A DNA stretch of 64,000 nucleotides from contig CP092864.1 in the NCBI GenBank assembly GCA_030710605.1, forward strand, positions 139,423,418 to 139,487,417. Reading direction: 5' to 3'. The translations under genes were made by a program, and so were the position numbers. The notes below the pieces were generated by a model. That model was not told the DNA's origin. It did not search any database and saw only the letters and a program-made list of their open reading frames with translations. Positions 8,090-47,069 of the stretch are shown piece by piece (position 1 is the stretch's first letter; every line of letters starts with the position of its first letter). The stretch is from Cordylochernes scorpioides (taxonomy: Eukaryota).

Positions 8090-8245
8090 TCTATGAGAGG
8101 ATACTCCAGCTAGAGGACACCTCTCTATAAAGGACAGTTTTCATTTACTATTTTTACTATTTAGTAACTCTCCGGTAAGAGGACACCTCTCCTAAAGGAA
8201 ACTTTGGCTCTGCAATTCGGTGTCCTTTACAGGGAGGTTCTACTG
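8090..8245 (+). mobile_element. MITE family A copy
   Basis: acagtagaacctctatgagagg...cagggaggttctactgta. Confidence 0.75.
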
Positions 8246-8917
8246 TATTATATTTTGTTAACTACCCATCATGATTACAACAACAACAACAACAAAAGCC
8301 TTTATTGAGGACCTCTCGTCCTATAAAGGATTCGCCAGTTTACAGAGTAATTGAAGAGAAGAGAACTAAGAATACAGAGATATAAGTAGTAGGTATAGTG
8401 TAGTATTTTCTACACTGTAACTATATACAACAGCAGCAACAAGCCTTTTACTGGAATCAAAGTCCCATACAGGATTCGTCATTCTAGTCCTGACAAAGAT
8501 TATTTACATATAATTATTTACATCAATTAGATTATGTATATAGCTTCCTTTTCTCTTCAACCGTCTTCCAAAATTTGAACAACGCAAACGCTCCAGCTCT
8601 GTTTCTCACCACCTCATTCAACTACCCATCATGATTATAAAGGCTACCTTTACTCTAGAGATAATTTTAAAAAAGTGTTTATATTGTGAAGAATCTTCTA
8701 ACCTATAGTATTTGAATTATCAGTGGAGCAGAGATTAATGAAAAAAAAAATCATAATTTAAAATTTCTATATATTTTTTAATATTTATTCTTCGCCAGAA
8801 AGAAAGAGGTTACCAAGCATCAAGTTCAACAAAGACAACTATTTCACTACCTGATAATACAATTTTTGGGAAGGATCTATCATGAACCAATTATGGGGCC
8901 AAAACAACTGAACCCTT

Positions 8918-10405: not shown

Positions 10406-10742
10406 AACTACAAACCAAATACTGAAGTCATCATGAAACAAATATGGTACCAATTACAAACCAAATACTGAATTCATAAGGTACAATTTGAATTATAGAT
10501 TAGTAATACAAGTTATTAAGACCAAGTAAAAATAAATAAATAGAATGTGTACCAGCATCGTTACAATTATCATTGATTCAGTACTTTTGTCAGATGATGG
10601 TAACAACACTGTTACAGAAACATCCACACACTATTTATTGATTTGGATTTGGTCTTATTGCATTTCAAATACTGAACTAATTATGAATCAAATATGGTAC
10701 CAATCACAAACCAAATACTGAACTCATTATGAAACAAATATA

Positions 10743-11987: not shown

Positions 11988-12272
11988 TATTTTTTGCTTA
12001 TCCCTAGTACATGTGGTACAGGCCATGATAATTATGGGGGGTAGAAATTGGCGACTACTTTTACTGTAAGTGCACCACATGTTTACACATGTGAAAAGCA
12101 GTTCGACTTTGCACTTATAAATGTGCCAGAGCCTCGTTTGGTTACTTGCACTCACTGGTGGGATTGGACTTTTGCAAGAATCGGGGGCCTTTGGCGCATT
12201 TTTGTTTTCTAATAAAAAAAAAAGTGCCCAATGCGGGAATCAAACCCGGGTTGTAGCAGTTGAGCAGATGAA
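11988..12272 (-). mobile_element. tRNA-derived SINE copy (inverted, 5'-truncated)
   Basis: tttttgcttatccctagtacatgtggtacaggcc...gcgggaatcaaacccgggttgtagc. Confidence 0.75.
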
Positions 12273-12284
12273 ACAAATATGGTA

Positions 12285-12790
12285 CCATTCACAAACCAAA
12301 TACTGAACCAAGCTATGATGATACAACTATGGTTCCAACTGATGACAAACCAAATACTGAACCAAGTTATGATGATACAACTATGGTTCCAACTGATGAC
12401 AAACCAAATACTGAACCAAGTTATGATGATACAACTATGGTTCCAACTGATGACAAACCAAATACTGAACCAAGTTATGATGATACAACTATGGTTCCAA
12501 CTGATGACAAACCAAATACTGAACCAAGTTATGATGATACAACTATGGTTCCAACTGATGACAAACCAAATACTGAACCAAGTTATGATGATACAACTAT
12601 AGTTCCAACTGATGACAAACCAAATACTGAACCAAGCTATGATGATACAACTATAGTTCCAACTGATGACAAACCAAATACTGAACCAAGTTATGATGAT
12701 ACAACTATAGTTCCAACTGATGACAAACCAAATACTGAACCAAGTTATGATGATACAACTATAGTTCCAACTGATGACAAACCAAATACT
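12285..12790. repeat. 54-bp minisatellite x 9.3 (open in all frames)
   Basis: (atggttccaactgatgacaaaccaaatactgaaccaagttatgatgatacaact)n. ORFs 12209..12805(-), 12279..12602(+) and 12329..12814(+) are all repeat artefacts. Confidence 0.9.
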
Positions 12791-13578
12791 GTATTCAGAA
12801 GGCAATCACAGTAAGGTTAAAGTGACCTCTCATTAAGATTAGGTGAGGGTAGGAAGTAAGTTTTGATCTGTTTGCTCCAAGGAGGGGAATGTACTTTAGG
12901 GTGGGTGTTATATTCATGTAAATAATACACAATCTCTTTTGCAACATTTAGAAAGACATAGATTTTATTAAAGCTTTAAAAAAAAGACAAAAGTGGCAAG
13001 AAAAATAGACTTGCACATAGAACAACAAGTTGCATCTAGATTCAAAATGGCCAGAATTAGACATGTTTTAACTAGAGATTTTTAAAAAACCATGGAAGGA
13101 ATTTCCAGTACAATCAACATCAGAGTTAGACAAGAGGAACTACAAGGGACAGAAATTGTCCATTATTCTATCTGCAAGTTCAGCAAGTATTACTTTTCTA
13201 GAGTAAAAAAAAAAAACATCATTCAAAAATTTGAGAACACTTTGCAAAATCAGCAACCAATCCATCACAGTCCAAGCTATAGGCTAGATGGTCAGTCCTA
13301 CTAATGTATATTCCAGTTCAAGCAACAAGAATAAAATGTATATTTTTCTATTTTTAACATTTGCAAGAGATTTGTAGAAGGCACAAAAGTGTCTTAGATG
13401 TGCCAAGATGCTGGTAAAGATAGAGAACAACTGTTCCTACCCAATATATTTAGAAGTAATTAGCATTGTTCCAGGGGTTCTAACACAAATTTAACTGGTA
13501 ATTTGGCAAATAAATAAAATAAGAGGACAAATTGTGTGGGTACGTCTCTTAACACGCATTGTATCAACTAGATATATA

Positions 13579-13759
13579 CAGTAGAACCTACCTTTAACGA
13601 ACACCTCTCTACAAAGGACAGTTTTCATTTACAAAATTAATCATACTATATCTTTATCATACTATTTTACTATTTAGCAACTCTCCAGTAAAAGGACACC
13701 TCTCCCTAAAGGACACTTTGGCTCTGCAATTAGGTGTCCTTTAAAGGGAGGTTCTACTG
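13579..13759 (+). mobile_element. MITE family A copy
   Basis: TIRs cagtagaacctacc / gggaggttctactg. Confidence 0.75.
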
Positions 13760-15667: not shown

Positions 15668-15779
15668 TATAATATATGAAGAGCATCTTCTGAGTCATGC
15701 ACCTAATCACAGCAGATAAAAGCAATTTATCAGTTATGAATAGCAACAAAAATTCTTCTTGATACATCAAGTGAAACTA

Positions 15780-15850
15780 ACTACATACGCGGCAGTTTGG
15801 GCTGTTGGCTTTTGTCAGCGCGGTGCAGGTTGTACCTCCACGACCTATCA
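15780..15850 (-). repeat. Degenerate HHR-family fragment (inverted)
   Basis: rc = ggtcgtggaggtacaacctgcaccgcgctgacaaaagccaacagcccaaactgccgcgtatgtag. Confidence 0.5.
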
Positions 15851-15889
15851 ATGTGGTCTTAGAGTCTTCTTGATGGATAAAAGATAATT

Positions 15890-17566: not shown

Positions 17567-18343
17567 AGGTGGCGTGATCATAGCCAACCAATAGGAGGGC
17601 GCCATTTCAAAAAAAAGCAAACGGTGACAGAGATGAAAACTGATGACTGATTGTTGATTAGGAGATGAGGAATGACGCTCGTAACTGTATATAGAATAAT
17701 CCAAATACTGTGTCTTATCATGCTCACAACTCCTTTCTTCATCAGAATCTTCTGAATATAATTTTATAAATTGAGAAAAATAACATCTAAGGAAGCATTA
17801 ATTATTCAAAGTTATATTCCTAGTTTTGTGTGCTCACCCATTGTTTAATTTTACATTTTTTGAATCCAAACAAGATGAAGAGTAATACTCTTATAAAAAT
17901 GACTAATTATATATATATTTCTCATTCAAAAATGATAAAGCACCATTTGGATTATAGATTATAGCTACAAGAAAATAAGATCAAATCCAAATAAATTAAT
18001 AGTGTGTGAAGTTTCGGTAACAACACTGTTACCGAAACTTCACACACTTAATTTATTTGAATTTGGTCTTATTTTCTTGTAGTTCCCATTCAAAATTCTA
18101 TGTGTTTGTGGATTCACTAATTCCCAATTATTCAGTATATTTATCAGTCAATATTTATCAGTCTATGTGTTTGTGGATTCACTAATTCCCAATTATTCAG
18201 TATATTTATCAGTCAAATGACAATTTATCCATAAAAAAAATCACATAAAAATGTATTTTTGCTAGGAGAGTAATAAATTCTCCCAGTGAATGTGTTGGAC
18301 AATATGTAAATTAGTAAAAAGGCAGGTTCAACAACAAGGAGTA

Positions 18344-19439: not shown

Positions 19440-20045
19440 TTTAATACACAATAAAATCCTAAATAATTGCAATTAGATATTCAATGAATGAAAGGAAGAA
19501 AAAATTGCAACGAGTTTCTTTATTCTGAATGTTGGCAAGCTTTCAGGCGTTAGCCTATCTTCAGGCCGATTTCGCAAAAAAATATATATACAAATAACAC
19601 AAAATCTAAACTATATATAAGGTGTAGAACTAATCCTACCGGAGTAAATTAAACAAATTGTAATAAAATATATTGTATACAACACAAAATCTAAACTATA
19701 TATAAGGTGTAGAACTAATCCTACCGGAAGTAAATTAAACAAATTGTAATAAAATATATTGTATACAACACAAAATCTAAACTATAGGTGTAGAACTAAT
19801 CCTACCGGAAGTAAATTAAACAAATTGTAATAAAATATATTGTATACAACGATACAATCGTTGTATACAATATATTTTATTACAATTTGTTTAATTTACT
19901 TCCTTATATATAGTTTAGATTTTGTGTTGTTTGTATATATATTTTTTGCGAAATCGGCCTGAAGATAGGCTAACGCCTGAAAGCTTGCCAACATTCAGAA
20001 TAAAGAAACTCGTTGCAATTTTTTCTTCCTTTCATTCATCAAATA
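19440..20045. repeat. ~600-bp foldback/long hairpin with internal 3x 63-bp tandem repeat; centre about 19857
   Basis: 19445-19855 is the reverse complement of 19860-20045 (gcaacgagtttctttattctgaatgttggcaagctttcaggcgttagcc / ggctaacgcctgaaagcttgccaacattcagaataaagaaactcgttgc). Confidence 0.8.
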
Positions 20046-21577
20046 CTGATTTATGTAAGTACTATTTAATTTGAAATGAAGGCGATAAAAACGTGGTGAT
20101 TTTCTTTTAATGGTAAAAACACAACTTTCAGGCAAGAATGGCCTTCTTCAGGTTACAACTTGGAAATATTTTAAAACTATGGATATGAAAGATAGCCCAA
20201 TACAGTAGGTAAATAGTTCAGCTGGGGGGATTGGCGAGGTAAAACACGGAGTATTGGGGTGGGAGGTCTCTTTTTTTCGGTTAAAACTGGGCATGCAGTG
20301 CGAGACCAAAGATCCAAGGACTAGGCGCTGATACTTGTTCCTGACGCCCTTGTACTATTTAATGTTGAAAATAAAAAAAAATGTATGGCTCTTTAAAAAC
20401 TTTGAGATTTTGGAAAATGTAATTTTGCCTAAGGGAAAGGTGCTGGGAAAGGGAAAATGTAATTTTGTCTAAGGGAAAGGTGCTTCCTGTTGAATTAAAG
20501 AAGTTATATACTCTTCAATCATCTGTTATAGAAGGTACAATTCAGTGCTTCCTGTTGAATTAAAGAAGTTATATACTCTTCAATCATCTGTTATAAAAGG
20601 TACAATTTAGATTATAGATTAGAAACATAAGGTAACACGACCACATCCAAATAAATAGTGTGTGAAGTTTCAAGTAACAGTGTTCCTCCCTCATTAGGCA
20701 TAATTAATTTATTTGGATATGTAACATGCTTTGTATTTATTTATGTAAAATATTTAATTATTCTTTTTGATTTTTCTACATAGTTAGGTAGTCGGCAATA
20801 CTTTACTTTCTTTCTTTTTGTAATTTTGCATAAGTTTTGTTTATATATTATGGTTAATCTTGTAATTAAATTAAGTATTTATTTATTTAACAGTTGGGAG
20901 AGACACGCCATATCCACAATTTGGATAATTGCGTGTATATTTTAAATTATATACAATTAATACAATTGAACATTGGGAATCATTAAAATTAAACGTTCGA
21001 TGTCAATTTTTACATATAGTAATTATAAGTAGTAGCTTGAAATATGTACGGTCAACACTTTTGCCTCAAAATATACATCCTGCAGAATCTATTAAACTTG
21101 ATGTATTGGTCTTTATTGCAAGCAGCTTGTTTTGTATTAGTCAGGTAAAGTTGGTTTTCTTCCCTTAGATCAGAAGTTAATGGACAGTTTATCAGAAGGT
21201 GTTCAGGGGTTTGTTGTTCGATTCCACAAGTGCATGCAGGTGAATCAATTTTGCCAATTCTAAACAAATATGTGTTGAAGTCACCATGTCCAGTAAAAAA
21301 TTGAACGTTATAGAAGTTGGGTTGAACATAATATTAAAACATAAAGTATTGTGACTATCCCTTATTTATAAATAGGAAACATTACAGGGATACGATCTTG
21401 TTACCTTATGTTTCTAATCTATAATCCAAATTGTATGTCATCATTGTGTGAAAAGGGCTGATATCAAAGTGGAATAAGAAAGATAATTTAGATGAAGGAT
21501 TGGGAGACTCCAACTGAAGATAGAGTATTCAGCACATATGGCTTGTGCAACAGTTTGATGTAAAAATGGAAACAGAC

Positions 21578-21766
21578 CTGGAGCTCAGGACCAGCGGAGG
21601 CAATGGAGCGGATAGTATCCTGGCCAATGGCATCCACCATGGACTTGAACTTGTTGGCATCAATGGCCGCCAGCTCCTTGGACTTGGAGACTTCCAGTTC
21701 ATTCTGTTTGAGCTCGTAGGCCAGCTCAGCCTGCCTGGCCCGGGTGACCAGCTCCAGCTCATTATC
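21578..21766 (-). CDS. MVP: MVP exon 12
   Basis: Acceptor tgtgacag|GAT; rc translated by hand to DNELELVTRARQAELAYELKQNELEVSKSKELAAIDANKFKSMVDAIGQDTIRSIASAGPELQ. Donor CAG|GTCTGT. The plus-strand ORF 21545..21853 is its antisense shadow. Confidence 0.8.
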
Positions 21767-22918
21767 CTGTCACACATATCATCTAGGATTAAAACCTACG
21801 TTTTTTTTTTAATCAGGAAGATGGAGATCTTTAAACACGCATACATTTATTAAGACAAACTGGTCTTATAGAAGATTTTTCTTGGAGATTACAAGATGTG
21901 GAAACTGAGAACAAGAAATATATACAGAACAACAAAAAAAAAAAGGTTTTTGTACACATGATATATTACATCTATATATATATTAAAGATTTATAGACAG
22001 AATAGTTAATAACACACATTATAAATTATGGGCACTATAGAAGCTTATTGATTCTTAAGAGATCTTTAAGCAGTTACAGAGAGATGAAATCTTTATATTT
22101 CCATAACATGGGGCCAATGGCTTTCAAGATAATAGACTTTCATCAAGGTCCAAAGAATAATGAAAATGTCTTGAGAGTTGTTTACGTCACACCTAGAGAG
22201 GGGGGGCAAAGTCTGACTGTGGATAGCCAACCAACGGCAGCAGCTTACCCATCATGGAGACTTATGAACACTTAGGTAAGGGTGAGAGCTGCTGTTTTGA
22301 AAGCTAGTGGCCTATTTTATCATAATGCAGCAACTAATCACTTTCATCATAAAACAGCTCGAGGAGCATGAACTCATGGAATTCGTGTAATCTTTGCACA
22401 AGGGGATAAGAAACAACAACAACAACACTAATCTCTGTGTGTGTGGCTGTTTTAAGATCTCCTAATTTTAAATAGAACCAGCTAGCTATTCTAGCCAAAT
22501 ATATTTCATATTTTGGCACAAAAGGGAACAAAGGAAAGATACTAATACTATAAAAAATTTGAAAAGAGCAACTGATAAAATGGGATGTATCCATTTAGAA
22601 GCTTTCAGCAGTAATTATTGTCTAGATCATGAAAATTTCCAAAGGTTTCATTAATTAAGGCTTATTGTATGCATATTGTTGACACCTACACTGTAGGTTC
22701 TCTCCAATCACTGAGTGAGGATGGTATGCATTTTCTTGTATCTATAATCCAAATTGTGCTTTATCAAATCTAAACTACAAATAACATTTTCTTATCAAGC
22801 AACTGAAAGTTGCTGATGGCTTGCGCCATCTATCGGAATAAATATCAACTATTCTCGTTGATTTTTAATTATTCCAGAATTGGCCAAATACCCATTCTTG
22901 ATTAACCAAGAAAAGCTA

Positions 22919-22960
22919 ACCACGGACGCGTTTCGGGCTGTTGGCCCTCATCAGCGTGGT
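22919..22960 (-). ncRNA. Minimal type I hammerhead ribozyme motif, inverted copy (same strand as MVP)
   Basis: Plus strand reads ACCACGGACGCGTTTCGGGCTGTTGGCCCTCATCAGCGTGGT, the exact reverse complement of the HHR at 23210-23251. Confidence 0.75.
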
Positions 22961-23209
22961 GCAAGCTGTACCTCAACGACCAAAATGATAGATGGCGCAA
23001 GCCATCAGCAACTTTCAGTTGCTTGATAAGAAGAAGCCTTTTTCTTAATTTATGCACCTTATCCCAGTACAATATTACATTTGTACTATTTTTTCACATT
23101 GTGTAGCGTTCTCACGCAATTCTGGCCTTAACTACCCGTTTCATGATTTTTCAGGATGCCTTAAGGACCAATTTTTTTTTTTTTTTTTGGTCGTTGAGGT
23201 ACAGCTTGC

Positions 23210-23251
23210 ACCACGCTGATGAGGGCCAACAGCCCGAAACGCGTCCGTGGT
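23210..23251 (+). ncRNA. Minimal type I hammerhead ribozyme motif (intact core)
   Basis: ACCACG-CUGAUGA-GGGC(CAACA)GCCC-GAAA-CGCG-UC|CGUGGU. Helix I is 6 bp (ACCACG/CGUGGU). Core C3-A9 is complete. Helix II is 4 GC pairs with a 5-nt loop. G12A13A14, A15.1/U16.1 and the GUC cleavage triplet are present. The palindromic ACGCGU helix III is typical of dimer-acting minimal HHRs. Predicted cleavage after C23245. Confidence 0.8.
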
Positions 23252-23550
23252 TAGCTTTTCTTGATTAATCAAGAATGGGTATTTGGCCAATTCTGGAATA
23301 ATTAAAAATCAACGAGAATAGTTGATATTTATTCCGATAGATGGCGCAAGCCATCAGCAACTTTCAAGTTGCTTGATAAGAAGAAGCCTTTTTCTTAATT
23401 TATGCACCTTATCCCAGTACAATATTACATTTGTACTATTTTTTCACATTGTGTAGCGTTCTCACGCAATTCTGGCCTTAACTACCCGTTTCATGATTTT
23501 TCAGGATGCCTTAAGGACCAATTTTTTTTGGTCGTTGAGGTACAGCTTGC

Positions 23551-23592
23551 ACCACGCTGATGAGGGCCAACAGCCCGAAACGCGTCCGTGGT
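23551..23592 (+). ncRNA. Minimal type I hammerhead ribozyme motif (second direct copy)
   Basis: Identical sequence to the 23210-23251 copy; predicted cleavage after 23586, 341 nt downstream of the first site. Confidence 0.8.
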
Positions 23593-23920
23593 TAGCTTTT
23601 CTTGATTAATCAAGAATGGGTATTTGGCCAATTCTGGAATAATTAAAAATCAACGAGAATAGTTGATATTTATTCCGATAGATGGCGCAAGCCATCAGCA
23701 ACTTTCAGTTGCTTGATAAGAAGAAGCCTTTTTCTTAATTTATGCACCTTATCCCAGTACAATATTACATTTGTACTATTTTTTACAAATAACATGATGA
23801 AACCAAACAAAAATTTGATATTTAGAGATCAGAGTGTGAATTAGAAAACAAAGGTAACATTAATAAAAAAAAATTAGGCAATTGCATGTCTGTCATTATT
23901 GAGAAGGGTAAATCACTTGC

Positions 23921-24164
23921 CTCTTTGATGGTGTTGGCCTCGGCTTTGAGCTTGGCCTGCTGGACAGCGGTCTCCCCCTCAATCTTGCAGGACTCGGCCC
24001 GCGCCAGAGCCTCAGCCTTGGATTGCCCACAGGCTTCCACAGTCTGGGACTGGGACTGAAGGTCCAGGAGCTCGAGGCGGGACCTCTCTGCCTTCACTTC
24101 GTCCTCAATCTTCTGTCTGGCTAGCCGGCCCTTGGCCTCTTGCTCCTGTCTCTGGGCCTCGTGT
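23921..24164 (-). CDS. MVP: MVP exon 11 (followed by GC-AG intron)
   Basis: Acceptor ggtgcag|A completes AGA (R); translates to HEAQRQEQEAKGRLARQKIEDEVKAERSRLELLDLQSQSQTVEACGQSKAEALARAESCKIEGETAVQQAKLKAEANTIKE. Donor AAAGAG|GCAAGT is a perfect GC-donor consensus; no in-phase GT alternative found. ORF 23822..24277(-). Confidence 0.75.
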
Positions 24165-24611
24165 CTGCACCACGGCACCAGGGTTACTTGTGGCCCCATA
24201 GAACACCGCACAGTATTGATTGATATATACACACTCTCTATTAATATTATATACATCGTGCATCTTGGGAACTTCAATGGTTTAGTATATAAATTATGGA
24301 TGCTAACAGACCTCTGCGAAGATCAACGGGCAACATAACAGATGATCTATGTCACAACGGTGTTATGCACTGAAGAATCTTCAGAGGAGAATACCTCTAT
24401 AAAATAACCTGGGCTGACAGTATCCAGTACAGCCTAGGGCACAGGTGAACAGCACTGTCTGCATCCATGTGAGGATCGAGTGCAAAGATGTCAGCCTCCA
24501 TGTCAAAAGCTGTCTCTTTCAGAGGTGAAAGTCAAACTGCTACAGTAACTCTAGCTTTTTATAGCCAACAGCAGTCGAACCCCTAACCCACCATGAAGGT
24601 TGAATAATATA

Positions 24612-24930
24612 CAGTACTCCATGAGAGGATACTCGCGCTAGAGGACACCTCTCTATAAAGGACAATTTTCATTTGCAAAATCCCAATTTTTACTATTTAG
24701 CAACAATTCAGTAAGAGGACACCTCTCCCTAAAGGACAATTTTCATTTGCAAAATCCCAATTTTTACTATTTAGCAACAATTCAGTAAGAGGACACCTCT
24801 CCCTAAAGGACAATTTTCATTTGCAAAATCCCAATTTTTACTATTTAGCAACTCTCCAGTAAGAGGACACCTCTCCCTAAAGGACACTTTTGTTCTACAA
24901 TTAGGTGTCCTTTACAGGGAGGTTCTACTG
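24612..24930 (+). mobile_element. MITE family A copy with 3x internal 62-bp duplication (MVP intron 10)
   Basis: ggacaattttcatttgcaaaatcccaatttttactatttagcaacaattcagtaagaggacacctctccctaaa x3, then the normal 3' TIR. Confidence 0.75.
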
Positions 24931-26232
24931 TGTACACACTTATTATTATAATATACTGATTATCATTTAAAAACTTTAAATTAAACTGAACTCTATATCA
25001 TATTAGGATTGTGGATTGTTGGGAGGTACAGTAAACCCTCTACACGATCGTATCAAGTCTTATTCTGGTAGACTTGATGCTGTAACCAGGAGGGACACTC
25101 CCTCTTTAGAAATCTTGAGTTCAACTGACCCGGTTGATGGACCTCAGCAATGGTCCCACTCCAGGGATACAGAGGAGCTGTGTCTGTGCTCATGTTAGAG
25201 TCAGCAGCAAAGGCTTCCATGTTAGGAACAGCCTCAAATTACAGGCAAAGTCAGACTTTACCAAAGTGTGCCTGGATCATGGTGCCATGATCAACGAAAG
25301 CTGCACCCCTATACCCCATTCCATGAGATCATGAACTCATGGGATTCGTGTAATCTTTACAAAGGGGATAAGAAACAACAACAGGATTGTGGTTTGTGAA
25401 ACGGAAATGACACAATGGCCTGCTACTGAATAAGTGCTCCCAGTTTTAAAGATAGACACATTCTGCTTCACCCAGTCATGATGCTTGTCACGCTCTACAA
25501 GCTTGATATGATTGAGTGGAGATAAGATAGATAAAGAAAGAGGTTTGTGGTGTTTTTCTACAATTATTGCACAGTTTCTCACATTCTGCACACCTCCAGA
25601 GTTTCACTTGAAGGCTTCCAGTGAGTATTCCTCCTCCCTAGATGAGATCCCTTCCATAACTTCTTGTTGCTTACACAACGTAGACATATCTCTTCCCTGG
25701 TGGTGGTGGCCAGCTTCTTCTAACTCAATGACTCCAACCCCGAGGTCTTACAGACACAATTGGTGGTTCCTTTTCCCTAGCATCACCTCAGAATCTAAGG
25801 TCAGTTCTGTCCAAGCTGAAGTAATGGTTCTTTAGGAGACATTCCCTTTCTTTATCAATGATCTTGAGGCAATATAAATGCCTGTAATGTGAAACTTCAC
25901 CCTTTTTGGGGGAAAGCACCTCAAACACCAGGTTACACAGATGAGATCAATACTGAGTAGACCAGTGAACCTAATCAAACCTCTTCAGATCACCTGAAGA
26001 AACTCTTAGAAATTCTTAGAGCTGGTCTCTCATCAAAGGAGAAGTTAGACAATCAATTTTGATTTCATACAAGAGTGGGGTGAATCATACGGATCACTTA
26101 GTGGAGACTTTACAGTCATAAAGAAGCTATAAAGAAATTGTCACCTACACACAAAGAACAATGGGGGGAACCTTGTCATTGCAGCCTCTTTTATGACTGC
26201 AACTTGGTTATAACATCCTAGCTTTAAAGATC

Positions 26233-27651: not shown

Positions 27652-28230
27652 TCTTCTTTCTTATCTCCACTCAATCACACTAAGGTATCAAGCTTGTCTT
27701 CTTCTTCTTATTTCTTATCTCCACTCAATCACACTAAGGTATCAAGCTTGTCTTCTTCTTCTTCTTTCTTATCTCCACTCAATCACACTAAGGTATCAAG
27801 CTTGTCTTCTTCTTCTTCTTTCTTATCTCCACTCAATCACACTAAGGTATCAAGCTTGTCTTCTTCTTCTTTCTTATCTCCACTCAATCACACTAAGGTA
27901 TCAAGCTTGTCTTCTTCTTCTTCTTTCTTATCTCCACTCAATCACACTAAGGTATCAAGCTTGTCTTCTTCTTCTTCTTTCTTATCTCCACTCAATCACA
28001 CTAAGGTATCAAGCTTGTCTTCTTCTTCTTCTTTCTTATCTCCACTCAATCACACTAAAGTATCAAGCTTGTCTTCTTCTTCTTCTTTCTTATCTCCACT
28101 CAATCACACTAAGGTATCAAGCTTGTCTTCTTCTTCTTCTTTCTTATCTCCACTCAATCACACTAAGGTATCAAGCTTGTCTTCTTCTTCTTTCTTATCT
28201 CCACACAATCACACTAAGGTATCAAGCTTG
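27652..28230 (-). repeat. ~60-bp tandem repeat x about 9.5 derived from a LINE 3' end (CTT-rich tail)
   Basis: (cttcttcttctttcttatctccactcaatcacactaaggtatcaagcttgt)n, contiguous with LINE 3' sequence at 28230-28440. Confidence 0.8.
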
Positions 28231-28621
28231 TAAAGCTTGAGATTTTTGATGGTGTCTGCCGGGGAAGAGTAGAGCTCATCAATGGATGAGTCAATACAGT
28301 CAATAATATGTCTTGGGGTTGCAGGCTGAGAATTGCACTTAGTACATAGTGGGAAAACCTTGCAAAGTCGGCCTGCCACTGAGTAGTGCTCCCAGTCTTA
28401 ATGACAAAGGCAGACACATTTTACTTTACCCAATCATGAAGAGGGTCTTTAACCCAAAACCATATTCCCTAGGTGGGCACTTTACAATTTGCCAAAGCTG
28501 CGGCTTTGTTTCCGACCAGAGTCTGCTAGTTTGCAGAGATGGCGCTTAGTTTTAGGGTTTATTTTCAACAAGATAATTTTATAGATCCCCAGGGCAAGAA
28601 ATATAAGGAGAGTGGAGTGAC

Positions 28622-28833: not shown

Positions 28834-29199
28834 CTGCCATCACACCACCAGTGTGTAAACTATTTAAAACATGTGATATTTTTTCTCATTCATTACTTTT
28901 GTCTGAAGATGATAACAAGCTGTTACCGAAATGGATTTGGTCTCATTACCTTGTGCTTATAATCTACTAGCCGAATGACCCGGGCAACGCCCGGGGTTTG
29001 CCCGATTAAATGCTTTTATTAAAATACTATTTGTTACAATTATAAATTGGCGCCGTGGATGTCATTCTTGTATAATATATAAATGAGTTTTAAAAATTGT
29101 AAAAAAAAAAAAAAAAAATGCATCGGCCGGGAATCGAACCCAGGGCGCCCGCCACTATAATATATAAATGAGTTTTAAAAATTGTAAAAAAAAAAAGAA

Positions 29200-29261
29200 T
29201 GCATCGGCCGGGAATCGAACCCGGGGCGCCCGCGTGGCAGGCGAGCATTCTACCACTGAAC
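29200..29261 (-). pseudogene. tRNA-Gly-like copy (5' acceptor strand missing) plus a shorter fragment at 29120-29159; same conserved flanking repeat (28960-29120)
   Basis: tgcatcggccgggaatcgaacccggggcgcccgcgtggcaggcgagcattctaccactgaac, preceded by a poly-A/T run and ctagccgaatgacccgggcaacgcccgggg... Confidence 0.5.
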
Positions 29262-30291
29262 AAAAAGCAAACGGTGACAGAATTAAGAACGCATGACGCT
29301 AATAACTGCATATATTAATAATCCAAATTGTGCCTTATCATTCCACACAGCTAGTTACAAGTAATCTTAAATCTGCTATAGCTATACATTTCTGCAACCC
29401 TAAACCATACTGTATTGGCTCATCTATTGATAAGCTCTACTCATTCCCAGCCGACACCATCCAAAGTCTCAAGCTTTACAGGCTTGATACCCTGATATGA
29501 TTAAGTGGAGATAAGAAACTGTCTGGTGAGAGGACACCTCTCCCTAAAGGACACTTTGTCTCTGCAATTAGATGTTGTCCTTTACAGGAAGGTTCTACTG
29601 TAATAAGGTATTCAGTTTATAACAGACATTTACTGCCTATGTATGGTATACGTACAACTACTGACTCCCTCCCTTGTATAGCCTTTTACATGTATAACAA
29701 AGGACAGAGTACAAACACAACTTATATCTACCATGATTATCATGTGCACGACTCCATATAGGTTATATGCCAGTTACGTTAGAGCGCTGGTTTTATCCAA
29801 CATTTCCCTGAGGACACCTACAGAGAGGTGTAACTTGGACTTTGACCTGGTATTAAATGGCCGCCTCTAACATGAGGAACAGACGCCCTGTGCAGCCGCT
29901 CCTAACATGGAGAACAGATGCTGCTGAATATCCTGTAACCCAAGAATAGGAGCCCTTACAGGGTGCTATCAGTCGGGCCAACTGAAACCTGGTTTTTTAG
30001 CGAGCTTGTTACTTCTCCCCCTCCTCCTTTTTCATCCGGGCTTGGGACCGGCAATAAGTAAAAAAAAAAAAAAGATTATCATTACATAGTACTTAGAGTA
30101 GAATGTAATCAAACCTTGCATGCTCATAGAACTTCATGTGGTTAGCACAGAAAACACATTAGCCTTCTTCTTTCTTATCTCCACTTAACAATCATATTAG
30201 GGCATCAAGCTTGTATATCTTGAGATGGTGTCTGCTGGGGATGAGTAGAGCTCATCAATGGATGAGCCAGGACAGTGACACATTAGTAATA

Positions 30292-30451
30292 CAGTAAAAC
30301 CTCCCTGTAAAGGACACCTAATTGCAGAGCCAAACTGTCCTTTAGGGAGAGGTGTCCTCTTACCAGAGAGTTACTAAATAGTAAAAATGGTAATTTTGAA
30401 AATGAAAACTTTCCTTTATAGAGAGGTGTCCGCTAAAGAGAGGTTCTACTG
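30292..30451 (-). mobile_element. MITE family A copy (inverted; MVP intron 9)
   Basis: cagtaaaacctccctgtaaaggacacctaattgcagagcc...agaggttctactg. Confidence 0.75.
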
Positions 30452-30649: not shown

Positions 30650-31068
30650 CTGTCAACAACCCCCATTTATTGAGTTAGCTATATATATGTAGATGGAAAA
30701 TTTGCCGGGAGGAAATTAATCCATAGAAGCAATGGGCGCCTCTCCCGTCGTTTGACGTTTATTTTGACGGGAGAGGCGCCCATTGCTTCTATATATATAT
30801 ATGTGTGTTCATTAATTAATAACACAAGGTAATATGACCAAATCTAAATAAATAAATAGTGTGTGACATTTTGGTAAAAGCATTGTTACCAACTTCAGAA
30901 AAAAGTACTGAATGAGAAATTACGAACAACAGTTACCGAAATGTTACACTCTATTATTTTATTTGAATTAGGTCTTACTTTCTTGTAGCTATAATCCAAA
31001 TTGTGCCTTATCACTAGAAAATTCAGTTCCTCTGTCTGTAGCACTCAGGGAGGGCCACCAACACCCAC

Positions 31069-31705: not shown

Positions 31706-31880
31706 CAGTAGAACCTACCTGAAAAGGACAACACCTAATTGCAAAGCCAAAGTGTCCTTTAGGGAGAGGTGTCCACTTACCAGAGAGTTACTAAATTGTG
31801 AAAATGGTAATTTTGCAAATGAAAACTGTCCTTTGTGGAGAGGTGTCAGCTAGCGGGGTGTCCACTAAAGGGAGGTTCTA
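31706..31880 (-). mobile_element. MITE family A copy (MVP intron 7)
   Basis: cagtagaacctacctgaaaaggacaacacctaattgcaaagcc... Confidence 0.7.
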
Positions 31881-32145
31881 AAGGTTAAAGGTAACAACAC
31901 TGTTACCAAAATTTCACTCACTATTAATTTATTTGGATTAGGTCTTATTTTTTATTGTATCTATAATCCAAATTGTGCTTTATCATATTTACCAATATGT
32001 AGTTGAAATAGGAAAAAAAAAAGATGTAATTTCCCCAAATATTTTACAAAACAACGAGCAATCCAGGGTTAAGTTTCTTTTAGAGAAATAAAAAAAGTAT
32101 TTAAAAAAACACGTAACCCTGTTAGGGATGAGAGAACATGTATTA

Positions 32146-33589: not shown

Positions 33590-33790
33590 AAATACAAGGT
33601 AATAAGACCAAATCCAAATAAATAAATAGTGTGTGACGTTTCGGTAACAGCGTTGTTACCATCTTCAGACAAAAGTACTGAATGAGAAATTTAACCACAG
33701 CCTGTTTTTAAATAGTTCCTGTTATCACACACTATTTATTTATTTGGATTTGGTCTTATTACCTTGTGTTTATAATCTATAATCCAAATT
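33590..33790. mobile_element. Palindromic hairpin MITE family B (GGCACAATTTGGATTATAG...), representative copy
   Basis: aaggtaataagaccaaatccaaataaataaatagtgtgtgacgtttcggtaacagcgttgttacc...gtgttatcacacactatttatttatttggatttggtcttattaccttgtgtttataatctataatccaaattgtgcc. At least 15 further copies, including 2090-2300, 7975-8085, 10490-10660, 17935-18075, 30820-30990, 47975-48360, 48640-49040, 50975-51300 and 52110-52440. Confidence 0.7.
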
Positions 33791-35707: not shown

Positions 35708-36067
35708 TATAGGAGAACTGTAAGTGAAACTGGAAAATCTTGGCCATAAATGTGATTTGGTCTAATGGATGTGCAGATATTGGGGCCTTAAGAACACCTA
35801 TTTGATCTGTATTAGAGCAGCTAGGTTTCTTCATCATGATAAACATCATACCTATGGTGTAACTATACTATGTGATTGATAACAAATCATTCTGCCATGT
35901 ATTGCCAGGTGTTGGAAGTCTTAGTCGGTGATGGCTGCAACTTTAGAATGAGATAGCTTGCTGGGTGACAGATTGGAAGAAAGTCTTTAATTCACCTCTC
36001 AATTCTTTAAATCATTGTATTGTTGGTGGTGATTTATAAAATTTAAAAATGGCTAACCTTCTAAATG

Positions 36068-36300
36068 ACCAGTTTTTTTGTTGTTGAGGTACAGCTTGCA
36101 ACATGCTGACAAGGGCCAACAGCCCGAAACGTGTATGTGGTTAGCTTTACTTGATTAATCAAGAATGGGCATTTGTCAAATTCTGGAATAATTAAAAATC
36201 AACAAATAGTTGATATTTCAGTTGCATGATAAGAAGATGCCTTTTTATTAATTTATTCACCTTATCCCAGTACAATTTGATGTTTGTACTATTTGTTCAC
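36068..36300 (+). repeat. Degenerate dispersed copy of the HHR-bearing repeat (core mutated to CUGACAA, G8A)
   Basis: gttgttgaggtacagcttgcaacatgctgacaagggccaacagcccgaaacgtgtatgtggttagc plus shared downstream unit sequence (cttgattaatcaagaatggg...ccttatcccagtacaat). Confidence 0.7.
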
Positions 36301-37384
36301 CTAATTCTTTTTTTGAAGTAAACGAAAAATTGCGCTACAAATAATAAAAATAAAACTACAACCTTTCGCAATGAGTTTCTTTTATTATGATATACGCGAG
36401 CTTTCGGGCTGGAGCCGCCCTTCTATGGGCAATATTTCAGCATACCATGAATACCGGCCACAAATTTAATTTAGATAGTCCAACTTGCCACTATAGTAAC
36501 ATAACCACCAAATCTGAAAGATTAATCCTTGAATTGCTGATTTCCAAACAACACAATAGCATTAATCGTAGAATAGATATCCCAGAACAATTTTGTCATA
36601 TTCCATACCACAAAAATCAGATTTCTCGCTTATCCAATCTATAGTCTAAAACTTAACTTTATTAAAATATTGAAATTTAAGGTTAATTTACTTCCAATTG
36701 TTAAACATAGTAAAATAGTAATAATTTATGTAGATTTAATACTTTTCTTTCTGATAATTTATGTAAAATTTGTAACAAATTAATGCATATAACTGTCTCT
36801 CAAAAATCAAATAGTTCATTTTTGCCTGTAGAAGGGCGGCTCCAGCCCGAAAGTTCGCGTATCTACTTATATAATTGCCTTATTCTGTCTGTGTGAAGTT
36901 CACTGTGTGAAGTATGTGGATATGGATGGAATGGATAAAATAAAAAAAGTGTCAAGGGATGGGAATCGAACCCACGACCTTCCGCTTACCAGGCAGATGC
37001 CATGACCACTAGGCCACATGACCACAATTTATAATTGTAACAAATAGTATTTGAATCAAAACATTCAATCGGGTAAAACACGGGTGTTGCCCGGGTCATT
37101 CGGCTAGTATCATAATAAAAGAAATTCATTGCGAAAGATTCTAGTTTTATTTTTATAATTCTTTTTTGTTTAAGGTGGAAAAATATCGGGCTTCTGAGGC
37201 TAAATTTCTTTTAAAACATTTTTCGGACACAAAAGCTAGGGATTTATGAATTTAAATGCTTTGAAAGAAACTTGAAGCCTGATAATTTCATCTCAATATT
37301 TGATACAAGGCATTATTTTAATGAACTGTAAATTTTTTTTTTTTTGTTCTTTTATTTCAGAGAATAAACAACTTTTTGTATTGT

Positions 37385-38815: not shown

Positions 38816-40159
38816 CTGCCATCACACCGCACCTGGTGAGAGCAGTAGTCTTAGGGGAATATAGGGGGAAACATGATTTCAATTGGATTCCATGTTAAAA
38901 TATTAAGGGGGTAAAAAGACCAAATCCAAATAAGTGGTCTATACATGACAGAGCATTTATAATTCTTTATAGATAAAAGCCTAGGGCACTTCTCCCGTCA
39001 AAATAAACATCAAAACTACACACCATCTATGGACCATCGCCGCAGACTAGCGGCCTGGGTCAGTAACAAAGCCACAACACCAGCTTTGTCAAATTGAGAA
39101 GTGTCCGCCAAGAGACCATGGTTTTGGGTTAATGGCCCTCAGCAGCCTAGAGCCAACTTTATTCCATGATATCCATAAGGGATCCAATGGAATCCTCAAA
39201 ATCTACCAAAGAGATGTTTAGCTGGCAAAGTGGCTGAGCAAATCTATGGCCAAAATATAGATGGAAATTTTGCCGGGAGGAAATTTATCTAAAAAAGCAT
39301 AGGGCACTTCTCTCCTATCAAATAAATGACAAACACCATCTATATTATATATTCATTTGTTTTTGGATTTACCCGTTGAAGAACAGGGTTTTGCTCGAAA
39401 GCTCACACCTCAATGTATTTGTATTAGAGCTTAGAAACATGTATAAGACTATAAATCTAAATAAAAATATAGTAAGTGATGTTTCAGTAACAGTGTTGCT
39501 TTTGTCTGATGATGTTTACAATATTGTTAATAAAACAACACATACTCATTATTTGATCTCCATCATGCTTTATAAATAACACAGAAGCTGGCTAGGAAGA
39601 TTAGAGATGTCAAGAAATGCCCCAACCAAATGAAAACTTTGAAAAGTCATCAGAACAAATTACTACAACTGTATTCTTTCAAAAGGAAAGATGCAAAAAA
39701 GAGGAGGACACAAAAACAATTTGTGACTTTTTTCAATTGTTGTGCTAACCATTTGCCAAGGCATATGTTGGTGAAGGTATATTGTTTACTATTGGGCGTA
39801 AAGGACAGTTAGGCTTGTGGACCTTTGTTTTACCATATATATTGGGAACATGTGCATCATAATTTTTTAACTTGGTTAAAAGCCTATAATTAATATATTT
39901 ATTTTTTCTCCAGTTTTTAAGTATGGCATTCAATTTATTTTTGAAGTTTTTGTTGGATTATTTATTTTGTTACTTTTAGTGTCATATATAAAGGTGAAGT
40001 GCAGAAACATAAGATATACCTTTGTGCCTCTCTATAACCACATCACTTTGTACCAAGATGTTGTTATATAACCAAGTTATTATAACCATGGTTAAAGTAA
40101 GTGGGACCATAGAATGGTGCTGGTCTACCCACCAAGCTATAGAAGAGGTATGCAGTTGT

Positions 40160-40700
40160 AACCACCAAGTTATCTTCTTCTTCTTTCTTATCTTCACTCA
40201 ATCATATCAGGATATCAAGCTTGTAGAGCTTGTTGATGATGTCTGTGCTGGGCATGAGTAGAGCTCATCAATGGATGAGTCAATACAGTCAATAATGTGG
40301 TTTGGGATTGCAGGTTGAGAATTGTGCTTAGTACATAGTGGGAAAACTTTACAACCATTCTGGAAAGTCATTGTCCGTAGATGACCAGACTTAAGTCTGG
40401 AAATCAAAGACTGTTGTCCACCAATATATATAGGAGGTAGGCAGTTGTAACTACCAAGTTATCTTCTTATTCTTCTTTCTTATCTCAACTCAACAATCAT
40501 ATTAGGGTATCAAGCTTGTAGAGCTTGTGATGGTGTCTGCTGGGGATGAGTAGAGCTCATCAATGGATGAGTCAATACAGTCAATAATGTGTTTTGGGAT
40601 TGCAGATTGAGAATTGCACTTAGTACATAGTGGGAAAATCTTGCAACCATTCTGTAAAGTCATTGTCCATAGATGACCAAACTCAAGTCTAGAAACCAAG
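40160..40700 (-). mobile_element. Two adjacent non-LTR retrotransposon 3' fragments (RT C-terminal CCHC-like motif plus (CTT)n tail); MVP intron 4
   Basis: ORFs 40207..40407 and 40502..40699: ...SRLKSGHLRTMTFQNGCKVFPLCTK.NSQ.AIP.HIIDCIDSSIDELY...; tail gtgattgagtgaagataagaaagaagaag. Confidence 0.7.
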
Positions 40701-40740
40701 TTATAAAAGAGGCAGGCTGTTGTAAAAAAAGTGTATGTAC

Positions 40741-40967
40741 CTTCTCAGTGAGAACATGGGCCTCCACAATGTCCATGATCTCCTCATAGGCCCCAGGCAG
40801 GTATGCTCCCACCTTCTTGACCAGCCATTCCTCCCCTGCCACCCTCTGGTTGCCATCCCGGTCCTTGGTCTCTTTCTCCGCCCGCAGCTTGAGGGCCTGG
40901 TTGGGCTTGATGACTGTGGCCACAATGGTCTCCACCACCTCCACCTCCTTCCTGGGAATGTAGGTCC
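40741..40967 (-). CDS. MVP: MVP exon 4
   Basis: Acceptor tatcag|GG; translates to [76 protein letters not shown]. Donor AAG|GTACAT. ORF 40660..40995(-). Confidence 0.85.
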
Positions 40968-41539
40968 CTGATACACAACATATACTCCCATTCATCTATT
41001 CACTTCCTTATTTATAATATTGTCATGCATTAAGTCTAAATGAAATATACTCATGGACAAAACTTATGAAAGTTATACCTTTTAGCATGTATATCAGGAA
41101 TTAGACAATAACTCTGAAAGATATTACAGGAACCTTTAGTGAATACACACGAGATAACCGGGGGGGAAGAAGTCTGACCTCACCTCCCTTGACCCTTGGA
41201 ATATTCGACTAAATTCTGGTCTGTTTCCAAGGCGACTAACGTGGCAATGACATCCATTTTCCAATGAAGAGCAAAATGCATGGAGACATCTAAGGTTTTT
41301 CATTGGACATAACAACAACGAGATAACCAAGTGTGAACAAAGTTGTCTCTGTCTCCTTCTAAGAACACTCTTGAAAATTTACTCTCAAAATCACTCTAGA
41401 AATAATCATTTTCAAGGCATTTCCAGAGAAAAATATGCCTATCAAAATATAGTAAAACTTGTCTCTAAAGGACAACACCTAGTTGCAGAGTGTAGTTTAG
41501 ATAGAAGTGTCCAGAGAGTTACAAATTAGTAAATATTTT

Positions 41540-41650
41540 TGGTCACAGAGGTACAGTCTGCACCACGCTGAAGAAAGCGTTCCACTAGATGGCGCTCTGC
41601 CATCTAAAAGTTCATGTGAACGTGGTCAGGAAATGCCTTTTTTTATTTAT
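41540..41650 (+). repeat. Internally deleted copy of the HHR-family repeat, abutting the mariner-like element
   Basis: ggtcacagaggtacagtctgcaccacgctgaagaaagcg...ctagatggcgctct...gtggtcaggaaatgcc. Confidence 0.5.
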
Positions 41651-43563: not shown

Positions 43564-43738
43564 CAGTAGAACCTCCCTTTAGCGGACACCATGCTAGTAG
43601 ACACCTCTCCATAAAGGACAGTTTTCATTTGCAAAATTACCATTTTTACAATTTAGCAACTCTCCGGTAAGAGGACACCTCTCCCTAAAGGACACTTTGG
43701 CTCTGCAATTAGGTGTCCTTTACAGGGAGGTTCTACTG
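43564..43738 (+). mobile_element. 176-bp Tc1/mariner-type MITE (family A; TIR CAGTAGAACCTCCC, TA TSD), reference copy
   Basis: ta|cagtagaacctccctttagcggacacc...aggtgtcctttacagggaggttctactg|ta. Confidence 0.8.
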
Positions 43739-43837
43739 TACATTTAAAAAAAAAATTCTTATTTTTCAGATGTTTAGCATAATTATGCAAAATGTTCTTG
43801 ATTTCTCAGGAAAACTCAAAGACCAACTTTTTGGTTA

Positions 43838-44035
43838 TGAGGTACAGTCTGGCATCACGCTGAGGAGGGCCAACAGCCCAGAAAGGGAATGTGGTTGGCT
43901 TTTCTTGATTTATCAAAAAAATGAGTTAGCTAAATATTATAAAATAAACTTTAAAAAAATGTTTAATTTATTTTTGTTACACTAGATGGCGCTCTTCAAT
44001 CTCATGTGAGTGGTCAGGATATGCCTTTCTTATTT
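43838..44035 (+). repeat. Degenerate dispersed copy of the HHR-bearing repeat (CUGAGGA; GAAAC lost)
   Basis: ggttatgaggtacagtctggcatcacgctgaggagggccaacagcccagaaaggg...cactagatggcgctc...gtggtcagg. Confidence 0.65.
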
Positions 44036-46485: not shown

Positions 46486-46650
46486 TCCCTTTAGCGAACA
46501 ACCCGCTAGCGGACACCTCTCCACAATGGACAGTTTTCATTTGCAAAATTACCCTTTTTACAATTTAGCAACTCTCTGGTAAGAGGACACCTCTCCCTAA
46601 AGGACACTTTGGCTCTGCAATTAAGTGTCCTTTACAGGGAGGTTCTACTG
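46486..46650 (+). mobile_element. MITE family A copy
   Basis: cagtagaacctccctttagcgaacaacc...cagggaggttctactg. Confidence 0.75.
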
Positions 46651-46965: not shown

Positions 46966-47069
46966 AGAAGTAACCTAAAAATGATTGTTTATTACTCCCT
47001 AGTAAAGCTGGGGACTATAGAATTATGATGTTAATCAAGTTGTTATAATAAAGGAGGCTGTTGTAACAG

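Follow-up and report, generated by a model that had tools for sequence, protein, structure and literature searches.

Hammerhead retrozymes have been present in the literature since 2014–2020. In metazoan retrozymes without long terminal repeats (non-LTR retrozymes), the repeats measure 150–450 bp, have a GC content below 50%, carry target-site duplications of more than 4 bp, and yield self-paired circular RNAs (circRNAs) of 170–400 nt (PMC7229834; PMC7761336). Their arrays are transcribed, cleaved by the hammerheads, and circularized by an RtcB-type ligase, and the circles are reverse-transcribed into multimeric cDNA (PMC7229834; PMC7761336). The locus described herein lies in a 64,000-nt stretch of the Cordylochernes scorpioides genome (assembly GCA_030710605.1, contig CP092864.1, positions 139,423,418–139,487,417, forward strand), which is referred to as the window and supplies all coordinates below. 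It comprises a short tandem of hammerhead-bearing units in an intron of the major vault protein (MVP) gene, which is encoded on the minus strand. The stretch 22788–23783 is probably (at roughly 0.8) the product of one recent retrotransposition of a non-autonomous, non-coding metazoan non-LTR retrozyme into this intron. The locus is a new member of this known class, and neither a new type of ribozyme nor a new kind of element; what appears to be new is the intact insertion signature.

Similar to the metazoan non-LTR retrozymes (PMC7229834), the locus consists of head-to-tail units within the 150–450 bp range, each with a type I hammerhead, placed in the same orientation 341 nt apart; repeats with hammerheads of the Penelope-like element (PLE) type lie alongside. 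The assignment is made because of the unit length, the type I hammerhead in each unit, the absence of an open reading frame (ORF), the GC content below 50%, the target-site duplication longer than 4 bp, and the predicted self-pairing of the monomer. An earlier interpretation made from the letters alone (hereafter, the sequence-only reading) had regarded the locus as a retrozyme-like candidate source of circRNA, and the sequence-level features that define metazoan non-LTR retrozymes are indeed found. The element differs from these retrozymes in its 341-bp body, which is unrelated to any retrieved copy; moreover, neither a partial unit inverted at the 5′ side nor a target-site duplication with sharp limits is reported for the retrozymes in PMC7229834, PMC7761336, and bioRxiv 10.64898/2026.07.22.740005.

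Plant retrozymes with long terminal repeats (LTRs) carry type III hammerheads in LTRs of ~350 bp, together with a primer-binding site, a polypurine tract, and 4-bp target-site duplications, and form circles of 600–1000 nt (PMC7229834; PMC7761336). The present element is similarly non-autonomous and non-coding, as in the plant elements whose hammerhead-processed monomers are thought to circularize and to be reverse-transcribed (PMC4918200), whereas its type I topology, 12-bp target-site duplication, and tandem layout without LTRs set it apart. A closer likeness in ribozyme form is found in amphibian satellite-2 and axolotl HHR_Amex1, which share a one-pair helix III with a palindromic tetraloop, a 6-bp helix I with internal loop 1, and a 4-bp helix II. 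As in HHR_Amex1, efficient cleavage is expected only as a dimer, and the unit lengths are comparable (341 vs. 331 bp), although the host is not a vertebrate and the body has no sequence homology to either repeat.

Anatomy of the Insertion

The block and its parts are arranged as follows.

22776–22787, unstranded: target-site duplication, left copy TACAAATAACAT, an exact 12-bp repeat at the block edge
22788 and 22986, unstranded: single unmatched filler T bases at the junctions
22789–22985, minus strand: inverted 5′ partial unit of 197 nt (unit positions 281–341, then 1–137) with one complete hammerhead
22919–22960, minus strand: hammerhead copy with the orientation of the MVP pre-mRNA, expected to be cleaved on the 3′ side of C22925 (exact motif and descriptor)
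22987–23245, plus strand: direct partial unit A (unit positions 91–341, by comparison with unit B), ending at cleavage site 1
23172–23188 and 23522–23529, plus strand: oligo-T runs T17 and T8, 21 nt upstream of helix I
23210–23251, plus strand: hammerhead 1, antisense to MVP, predicted cleavage after C23245 (exact motif; sub-threshold match to Rfam Hammerhead_HH9 at 23200–23265)
23246–23586, plus strand: unit B, the complete 341-nt monomer between the predicted GUC cleavage sites
23340–23355, also 22991–23006 and 23681–23696, plus strand: GCAA-tetraloop hairpin GAUGGC-GCAA-GCCAUC (inverted copy at 22815–22830)
23551–23592, plus strand: hammerhead 2, predicted cleavage after C23586 (exact motif and descriptor; sub-threshold HH9 match)
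23587–23783, plus strand: direct partial unit C (unit positions 1–199), 3′ end ...ACTATTTTTT at the insertion edge
23784–23795, unstranded: target-site duplication, right copy TACAAATAACAT, an exact 12-bp repeat at the block edge

The 996 bp at 22788–23783 form a single insertion between two perfect copies of TACAAATAACAT. This 12-mer occurs in exact form twice in the window, solely at the two borders of the repeat block, against a chance expectation of 0.05. With the insertion removed, the empty site reads ...AAACTACAAATAACATGATG..., and because the duplication bounds the whole block, the present structure is that which was inserted and not the product of a later deletion. The sequence-only reading had described a plain tandem of ~340-bp units. 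The period stands, since Tandem Repeats Finder returns a period of 341 with 2.3 copies and 97% matches (22987–23784), whereas the plain tandem does not, as the 197-nt inverted partial unit precedes 2.34 direct units. The direct units abut seamlessly, no trace of internal ORF sequence lies between them, and the only repeat within the insertion is the unit itself.

The copies are nearly identical. Units A and C show no substitution relative to unit B, unit A differing in the length of the T run and a 1-nt indel, and the inverted segment is 99% complementary to 23526–23722, with one substitution and a 1-nt gap relative to the full unit. The differences among copies thus amount to the length of the T run (T17 or T8), an additional A in the middle unit, and an A-to-G substitution in the inverted segment, with a unit identity of at least 99.7%. 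Because of this near-identity and the perfect target-site duplication, the insertion is apparently young. The oligo-T run, which the sequence-only reading had placed at the end of each unit, is actually located 21 nt upstream of helix I.

On the template, the inverted and direct segments overlap by 46 nt (arms 22789–22834 and 22987–23032) and together represent one contiguous template stretch of ~942 nt, i.e., 2.76 units; the left target-site duplication adjoins the priming end of the inverted segment. This geometry suggests that a plus-strand template was copied by twin-primed target-primed reverse transcription. An RNA intermediate of minus polarity was considered and rejected, as the inversion would then be expected at the 3′ end, contrary to the usual pattern.

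The Hammerhead Motif

The 42-nt hammerhead ACCACGCTGATGAGGGCCAACAGCCCGAAACGCGTCCGTGGT, which is divided into ACCACG-CUGAUGA-GGGC-CAACA-GCCC-GAAA-CGCG-UC-CGUGGU, occurs three times in the window, at the positions at which the sequence-only reading had placed it, and its 30-nt core is exact in each. The description of the core and of helices I and II given in that reading is likewise borne out in all copies. The catalytic core is complete in three of three (C3 U4 G5 A6 N7 G8 A9, G12 A13 A14, the A15.1–U16.1 pair, and an H17 that is not G). Helix I is open and formed by ACCACG/CGUGGU (6 bp), followed by the internal loop UUGC/UA and a closing stem AGC/GCU; helix II is GGGC/GCCC (4 bp, closed by G10.1–C11.1) with the loop CAACA; and helix III is a single A15.1–U16.1 pair around a palindromic CGCG loop. 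A strict descriptor, which demands the full core, a palindromic segment from A15.1 to U16.1, and minimum lengths of 5 bp for helix I and 4 bp for helix II, detects three sites in the window and none in 200 dinucleotide-preserving shuffles, and a relaxed descriptor detects eight sites against a shuffle mean of 0.04.

The canonical metazoan type I hammerhead has a 6-bp helix I and a 4-bp helix II that interact through their loops, and a helix III of 1–2 bp with a palindromic loop of 2–4 nt; it is weak alone and active as a dimer near a second copy (PMC4209133). The minimal hammerhead ribozyme (min-HHR) of PLEs has a helix II of 7–8 bp, a helix I of 4–5 bp, and an unpaired base between A9 and position 10.1 (PMC4209133). 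By its sequence, the present motif belongs to the canonical metazoan type I, its helix III being palindromic and of the dimer type. It is not a min-HHR because helix II has 4 bp, a defined loop 1 accompanies a 6-bp helix I, and A9 is followed by no unpaired base; the label "minimal" in the sequence-only reading is therefore dropped. When the 73-nt motif is folded alone, the centroid contains helices I and II and no helix III. Between two copies, the ACGCGU palindrome forms a 6-bp intermolecular duplex with a computed energy of −8.9 kcal/mol, whereas co-folding of the homodimer gives a domain-swapped structure and not the classical double hammerhead. Self-cleavage is predicted at C23245 and C23586; these GUC sites are 341 nt apart, in agreement with the monomer length expected beforehand.

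The same features bear on the relation to PLEs. The locus shares with PLE pseudo-LTRs carrying min-HHRs a partial tandem with an upstream inverted 5′-truncated copy, the type I topology, and a palindromic dimer helix III (PMC4209133; PMC8557442), and it could accordingly be taken for the remnant of an ordinary autonomous PLE, in which two pseudo-LTRs and an inverted copy were left after loss of the reverse transcriptase–endonuclease ORF, with no distinct circRNA-producing element. PLE pseudo-LTRs do carry hammerheads and form tandem or inverted structures (PMC8557442; PMC4209133), and retrozyme consensuses cluster with them in Xenopus (bioRxiv 10.64898/2026.07.22.740005). However, no reverse transcriptase/GIY-YIG ORF or trace of one separates the repeats, which abut head to tail at period 341, and the target-site duplication indicates that nothing was lost after insertion. 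Furthermore, the ribozyme is canonical as in retrozymes and differs from the min-HHRs of animal PLE pseudo-LTRs, and the monomer is strongly self-paired, as is typical of retrozyme circles. A PLE remnant is thus quite unlikely, and the retrozyme assignment is retained.

The Predicted Monomer RNA

The circular form of the 341-nt monomer has a minimum free energy (MFE) of −111.2 kcal/mol, compared with −68.5 ± 5.2 kcal/mol for 200 dinucleotide shuffles (z = −8.1); 64% of its bases are paired, and its GC content is 39.3%. The MFE fold is a branched quasi-rod, in which helix I (positions 1–6 with 306–311) and five further helices close the molecule, and helix I brings together both ends generated by cleavage. 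The GCAA-tetraloop hairpin, noticed in the sequence-only reading, is present in the repeats and forms in this fold. The oligo-U run is mostly in the loop of a hairpin GACCAA/UUGGUC, and variation in its length should therefore be structurally neutral. The longest ORF overlapping the insertion encodes 56 aa, and the monomer is non-coding. An Rfam search by expectation value (E-value) over a 1.15-kb stretch yielded no second ribozyme in the monomer in either polarity; symmetric RNA–RNA replication would need a second ribozyme of opposite polarity.

The tandem arrangement might also be explained as satellite-type DNA that arose by unequal crossing-over or replication slippage and contains a hammerhead-like sequence with no RNA life cycle, and the hammerhead repeats of amphibians were indeed first described as satellite DNA (PMC7229834). 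This explanation is very improbable here: a precise target-site duplication bounds a block of only 2.3 direct units and an inverted piece, 5′-truncated single copies are dispersed elsewhere in the window, the complete ribozyme is far beyond chance, and the monomer fold has z = −8.1.

Older Copies and Environmental Hammerheads

A blastn search of the 64-kb window with the 341-bp unit reveals five older copies with 70–85% identity.

36061–36300, plus strand: old 5′-truncated single copy, 74–85% identity; core dead (CTGACAA, GTA triplet, CpG to TpG changes)
43795–44036, plus strand: old decayed copy, ~70% identity; core dead (CTGAGGA, GAAA lost)
46801–46973, plus strand: old decayed copy, ~76% identity; core dead (CTGATGG, AAAA)
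15756–15873, minus strand: old decayed copy, ~72% identity; core dead (CTGACAA)
41531–41574, plus strand: short family fragment that aligns to the stretch immediately upstream of the hammerhead

All four copies that span the ribozyme have a dead core; three have lost GAAA, and all four have GTA in place of GTC at the cleavage triplet, which suggests an older subfamily. Such decay is expected of inserted copies evolving neutrally and is uninformative regarding the source copies. Many of the differences are CpG to TpG or CpA changes, and the window as a whole has a GC content of 35.6% and an observed/expected CpG ratio of 0.47, which together point to a methylated genome. The copy at 36061–36300 ends ~3 nt from the position at which the young insertion ends (unit position 199), a single hint of a preferred start site of reverse transcription.

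The exact 30-mer core has no match in metagenome contigs, and the core sequence is absent from the text supplement of the 2020 NAR paper (PMC7229834). A search of viral contigs for the family likewise gave no match. A degenerate core search of metagenome contigs retrieved 15 loci, which share only the 25–35-nt ribozyme and not the 341-bp body. The unconstrained positions of helix II are complementary in 14 of the 15 (GGGC/GCCC, GCCC/GGGC, GAGC/GCUC), and the helix I sequences differ and are nevertheless complementary (ACUGCA/UGCAGU, GUGCCA/UGGUAC), with loop 1 UGC and loop 2 CAACA as in the window motif. Because these hammerheads share loops while their differing helix sequences stay complementary, the combination of loop 1 UGC with loop 2 CAACA appears to be a recurrent functional architecture in independent hammerhead families. 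Helix III of the metagenome hammerheads is either stable or palindromic, and several are located in short tandems: those on contigs L003, L004, L006, L008, and L012 are ~119 nt apart, and those on L005 ~1030 nt apart. Canonical type I hammerheads with the same loops are also carried by contigs L001, L009, L013, and L014. The loci are probably retrozymes of eukaryotes in the environmental samples.

Proposed Life Cycle and Mobilization

A life cycle can be proposed for the element, with the RNA-level steps taken from the literature on the class. A plus-strand multimeric transcript of an active array would allow adjacent ribozymes to fold as a double hammerhead, the two pairing via the 6-bp ACGCGU duplex, and an RtcB-type tRNA ligase would circularize the released monomers. 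The lone hammerhead in a circle would be nearly inactive, as its helix III cannot form, and the circle would thereby be protected. A staggered break in the chromosome would then prime a reverse transcriptase acting in trans, most likely that of a PLE, to copy at least 2.76 unit lengths of either the circle or a multimer that had escaped cleavage; were both target strands to serve as primers, in a manner similar to twin priming, the inverted 5′ copy would result.

PLE insertions are partial tandems, often with an upstream inverted 5′-truncated copy (PMC8557442), and because the insertion fits this published layout, PLE-mediated integration of multi-unit cDNA is the favoured route. Two repeat families with PLE-type min-HHRs, designated fam2 and fam3, are located in the same window. 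A phylogeny-based argument that animal retrozymes derive from PLE pseudo-LTRs has been put forward, in which insertion architecture is not discussed (bioRxiv 10.64898/2026.07.22.740005).

The alternative is that the mobilizing machinery is that of a long interspersed nuclear element (LINE) and not of a PLE, the element being a hammerhead element similar to a short interspersed nuclear element (SINE; cf. Schistosoma Sm-alpha) and owing its insertion to classical twin priming during LINE target-primed reverse transcription. In accord with this alternative are the 12-bp duplication of the target site and the 46-nt template overlap at the 5′ inversion; such a duplication and an overlapping 5′ inversion are hallmarks of L1-type twin priming. 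ORF fragments that end in Cys-x2-Cys ... His ... Cys, a motif typical of the C-terminus of LINE ORF2, are present in the window and represent a possible alternative machinery; none has a Pfam match at E ≤ 0.01.

2614–2937, minus strand: ORF fragment with the Cys/His motif
21052–21267, minus strand: ORF fragment with the Cys/His motif
50301–50690, plus strand: ORF fragment with the Cys/His motif
52388–52708, plus strand: ORF fragment with the Cys/His motif

In addition, no motif in metazoan retrozymes identifies their autonomous partner (PMC7761336). By contrast, the insertion has no poly(A) or microsatellite tail at its 3′ end, the unit has no 3′ similarity to any other repeat in the window, and no tRNA, 7SL, or 5S head is found; the internal T5–T17 runs in each unit also speak against RNA polymerase III, transcription by which was rejected on this basis. 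The combination of a type I hammerhead with a tandem-plus-inverted layout is a PLE signature, and PLE-type min-HHR repeats crowd the window. Mobilization by a LINE is accordingly regarded as unlikely, and a PLE remains the favoured agent.

Several observations weigh against the proposed assignment and route. Among ORFs of at least 70 aa, no PLE reverse transcriptase or GIY-YIG ORF is found in the window; LINE-like 3′ ORF fragments are found there, and target-primed reverse transcription by a LINE would just as typically leave the 12-bp target-site duplication and the 5′ inversion. Searches of metagenome and viral contigs revealed no relative of the 341-bp body beyond the window, and statements on the family as a whole draw on six copies. 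Transcription, cleavage, and circles of the 341-nt monomer are predictions from the DNA; as only one of nine intact-looking Xenopus retrozyme dimers cleaved in vitro (bioRxiv 10.64898/2026.07.22.740005), ribozyme activity is not to be assumed. Two checks named in the sequence-only reading, a covariance-model search and conservation of the core across copies, also gave unfavourable results. At the gathering threshold, Rfam reports no hammerhead in the whole window and only three tRNA-like matches; in E-value mode over the 1.15-kb stretch, all three copies match Hammerhead_HH9 (RF02275, the best-scoring model) at 26.1–26.5 bits (E = 4e-4 to 6e-4), compared with a gathering score of 52, and the old copies keep the core no better than the flanks. 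HH9 aligns over the core, helix II, and helix I including the internal loop, and the score is low because the 3-bp helix III of the model with its loop, together with part of outer helix I, is deleted in the alignment. HH9, unlike the present repeat, is a single-copy conserved intronic motif of amniotes. The window motif has loop 2 CAACA and loop 1 UUGC/UA, compared with loops of the CAAAUA/UAC type in the HH9 consensus. Loops of the latter type are those of Schistosoma-type hammerhead motifs. The sub-threshold score and the decayed older copies do not refute the retrozyme assignment; neither is decisive because the score is lost on the missing helix III and dead transposon copies decay neutrally.

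As an example of an animal hammerhead retrozyme, the locus is clean, structurally complete, and apparently recent, and its exact boundaries, empty site, inverted 5′ piece, and multi-unit length provide data for deciding on the integration route and the mobilizing reverse transcriptase. It is tentatively suggested, with the odds rather against it, that the young copy may freeze an intermediate of retrozyme integration, as would be marked by the 12-bp duplication, the twin-primed inversion with its 46-nt overlap, the at least 2.76 contiguous units, and the 3′ start common to an older copy. Should the signature recur genome-wide and match that of the neighbouring min-HHR repeats, it would constitute direct structural evidence for the integration of circles or uncleaved multimers by Penelope-like reverse transcriptase/GIY-YIG proteins, by way of rolling-circle target-primed reverse transcription from a preferred internal site, and it would address the question of the autonomous partner of metazoan retrozymes, raised in the 2020 review. 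With a canonical retrozyme hammerhead beside two min-HHR families, this genome is suited to probing the proposed partnership between retrozymes and PLEs.

The Host Gene MVP

The intronic location proposed in the sequence-only reading is confirmed by MVP exons that flank the site on the minus strand.

~23921–24170, minus strand: cap-helix exon of MVP, preceding the insertion in gene orientation; translation HEAQRQEQEAKGRLARQKIEDE...KLKAEANTIKE, donor AAAGAG|GCAAGT
~21545–21760, minus strand: next MVP exon downstream; translation DNELELVTRARQAELAYELKQNELEVSK...GPELQ

The exon ORF at 31023–31508 matches major vault proteins and the Pfam domains Vault_3, Vault_4, and MVP_shoulder, and the ORF at 40660–40995 carries a Vault repeat. 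The best full-length identities of the MVP exon in the protein collection are 67% (Nematostella) and 64% (fish), and in the two contigs with the closest partial MVP exon matches, neither the retrozyme nor fam2 is present. The 5′ splice site of the insertion-bearing intron (~23915–23921, minus strand; AAAGAG|GCAAGT) appears to be a donor of the GC-AG type.

A hammerhead in such a position raises the possibility of host exaptation, i.e., an intronic ribozyme that regulates MVP pre-mRNA, as has been suggested for the amniote HH9/HH10, or an inverted repeat acting as a source for small-RNA or RNA-editing pathways. The hammerhead at 22919–22960 has the orientation of the MVP pre-mRNA, the best Rfam match is the intronic amniote ribozyme HH9, the insertion ends ~137 nt from the predicted 5′ splice site, and a near-perfect hairpin of ~197 bp is expected in the pre-mRNA. 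Nevertheless, the insertion is young, with units at least 99.7% identical and a perfect duplication, and hence offers no evidence of conservation, and other copies of the family in MVP introns have decayed freely. Both tandem ribozymes are antisense to MVP, and the sole sense-strand ribozyme, which belongs to the dimer-dependent type, is expected to lie hidden in the ~197-bp duplex with the distal direct unit. Exaptation is thus highly improbable, and because the tandem ribozymes are antisense and the single sense ribozyme should be sequestered, the insertion probably does nothing for MVP.

Other Repeats and Features in the Window

The fam2 repeat has at least 25 arms in the 64 kb, and its consensus TGTCTGATGATGGTAACAACGCTGTTACCGAAACGTCACA (UGU-CUGAUGA-U-GGUAACA-ACGC-UGUUACC-GAAA-CG-UC-ACA) is a textbook PLE-type min-HHR with a 7-bp helix II, an unpaired U after A9, a palindromic ACGU, and a 3-bp helix I. 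In many fam2 copies, the helix II hairpin is the centre of a perfect palindrome, as though reverse transcription had snapped back at this point. The fam3 repeat is situated in the intron just upstream, in MVP sense, of the last MVP coding exon. Its motif is GGC-CUGAAGA-U-AGGC-UAAC-GCCU-GAAA-GC-UU-GCC, and its interior consists of three tandem repeats of 81–85 bp and a perfect 47-nt central palindrome. The two families indicate a genome that is rich in PLE-derived sequence.

51020–51160: best copy of fam2
51045–51078 and 33635–33668, minus strand: fam2 copies with an intact core
2144–2289, 10553–10656, 17971–18076, 28887–28972, 30828–30982, 31866–31952, and 33598–33763: further copies of fam2
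39490–39576, 48017–48347, 48702–49051, 51189–51296, 51495–51581, and 52103–52189: further copies of fam2
19478–20045, unstranded: fam3, bounded by terminal inverted repeats of 104 nt (98%) with a min-HHR-like motif in each

Rfam matches of fam2 and fam3 to microRNA (miRNA) precursors are below threshold and were rejected as artefacts caused by long hairpins; further small-RNA and miRNA matches in the E-value-mode search of the 1.15-kb stretch were dismissed as spurious.

A hairpin-forming repeat of ~93 bp (GGACACCTCTCCCTAAAGGACAC ... GTGTCCTTTACAGGGAGG; reference copy 46560–46660) has at least 25 further copies and is also found as a 74-bp tandem at 24640–24891. Of the five old retrozyme fragments, three have a copy of it at a distance of 50–180 nt (43648/43795, 46560/46801, and 15580/15756), which could reflect chance at such a density or a composite element.

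31–228, 8156–8247, 13669–13759, 24640–24931, 30290–30382, and 43648–43744: example copies of the ~93-bp hairpin repeat
36950–37022, 49708–49777, and 29208–29261, minus strand: tRNA-like Rfam matches above threshold (36–47 bits) with mismatched acceptor stems
41881–42492, minus strand: ORF of 203 aa whose mariner-type Transposase_1/DDE_3 domain (E = 7e-16) marks a fossil mariner-like DNA transposon within an intron of MVP

The three tRNA-like matches are probably the heads of tRNA-derived SINEs and not tRNA genes. Finally, long regular tandem repeats at 12209–12814 and 27694–28233 are open in several frames (e.g., SIWFVISWNYSCIIITWF and SSLSSSSSFLSPLNHTKV repeated) and are probably minisatellites rather than genes.

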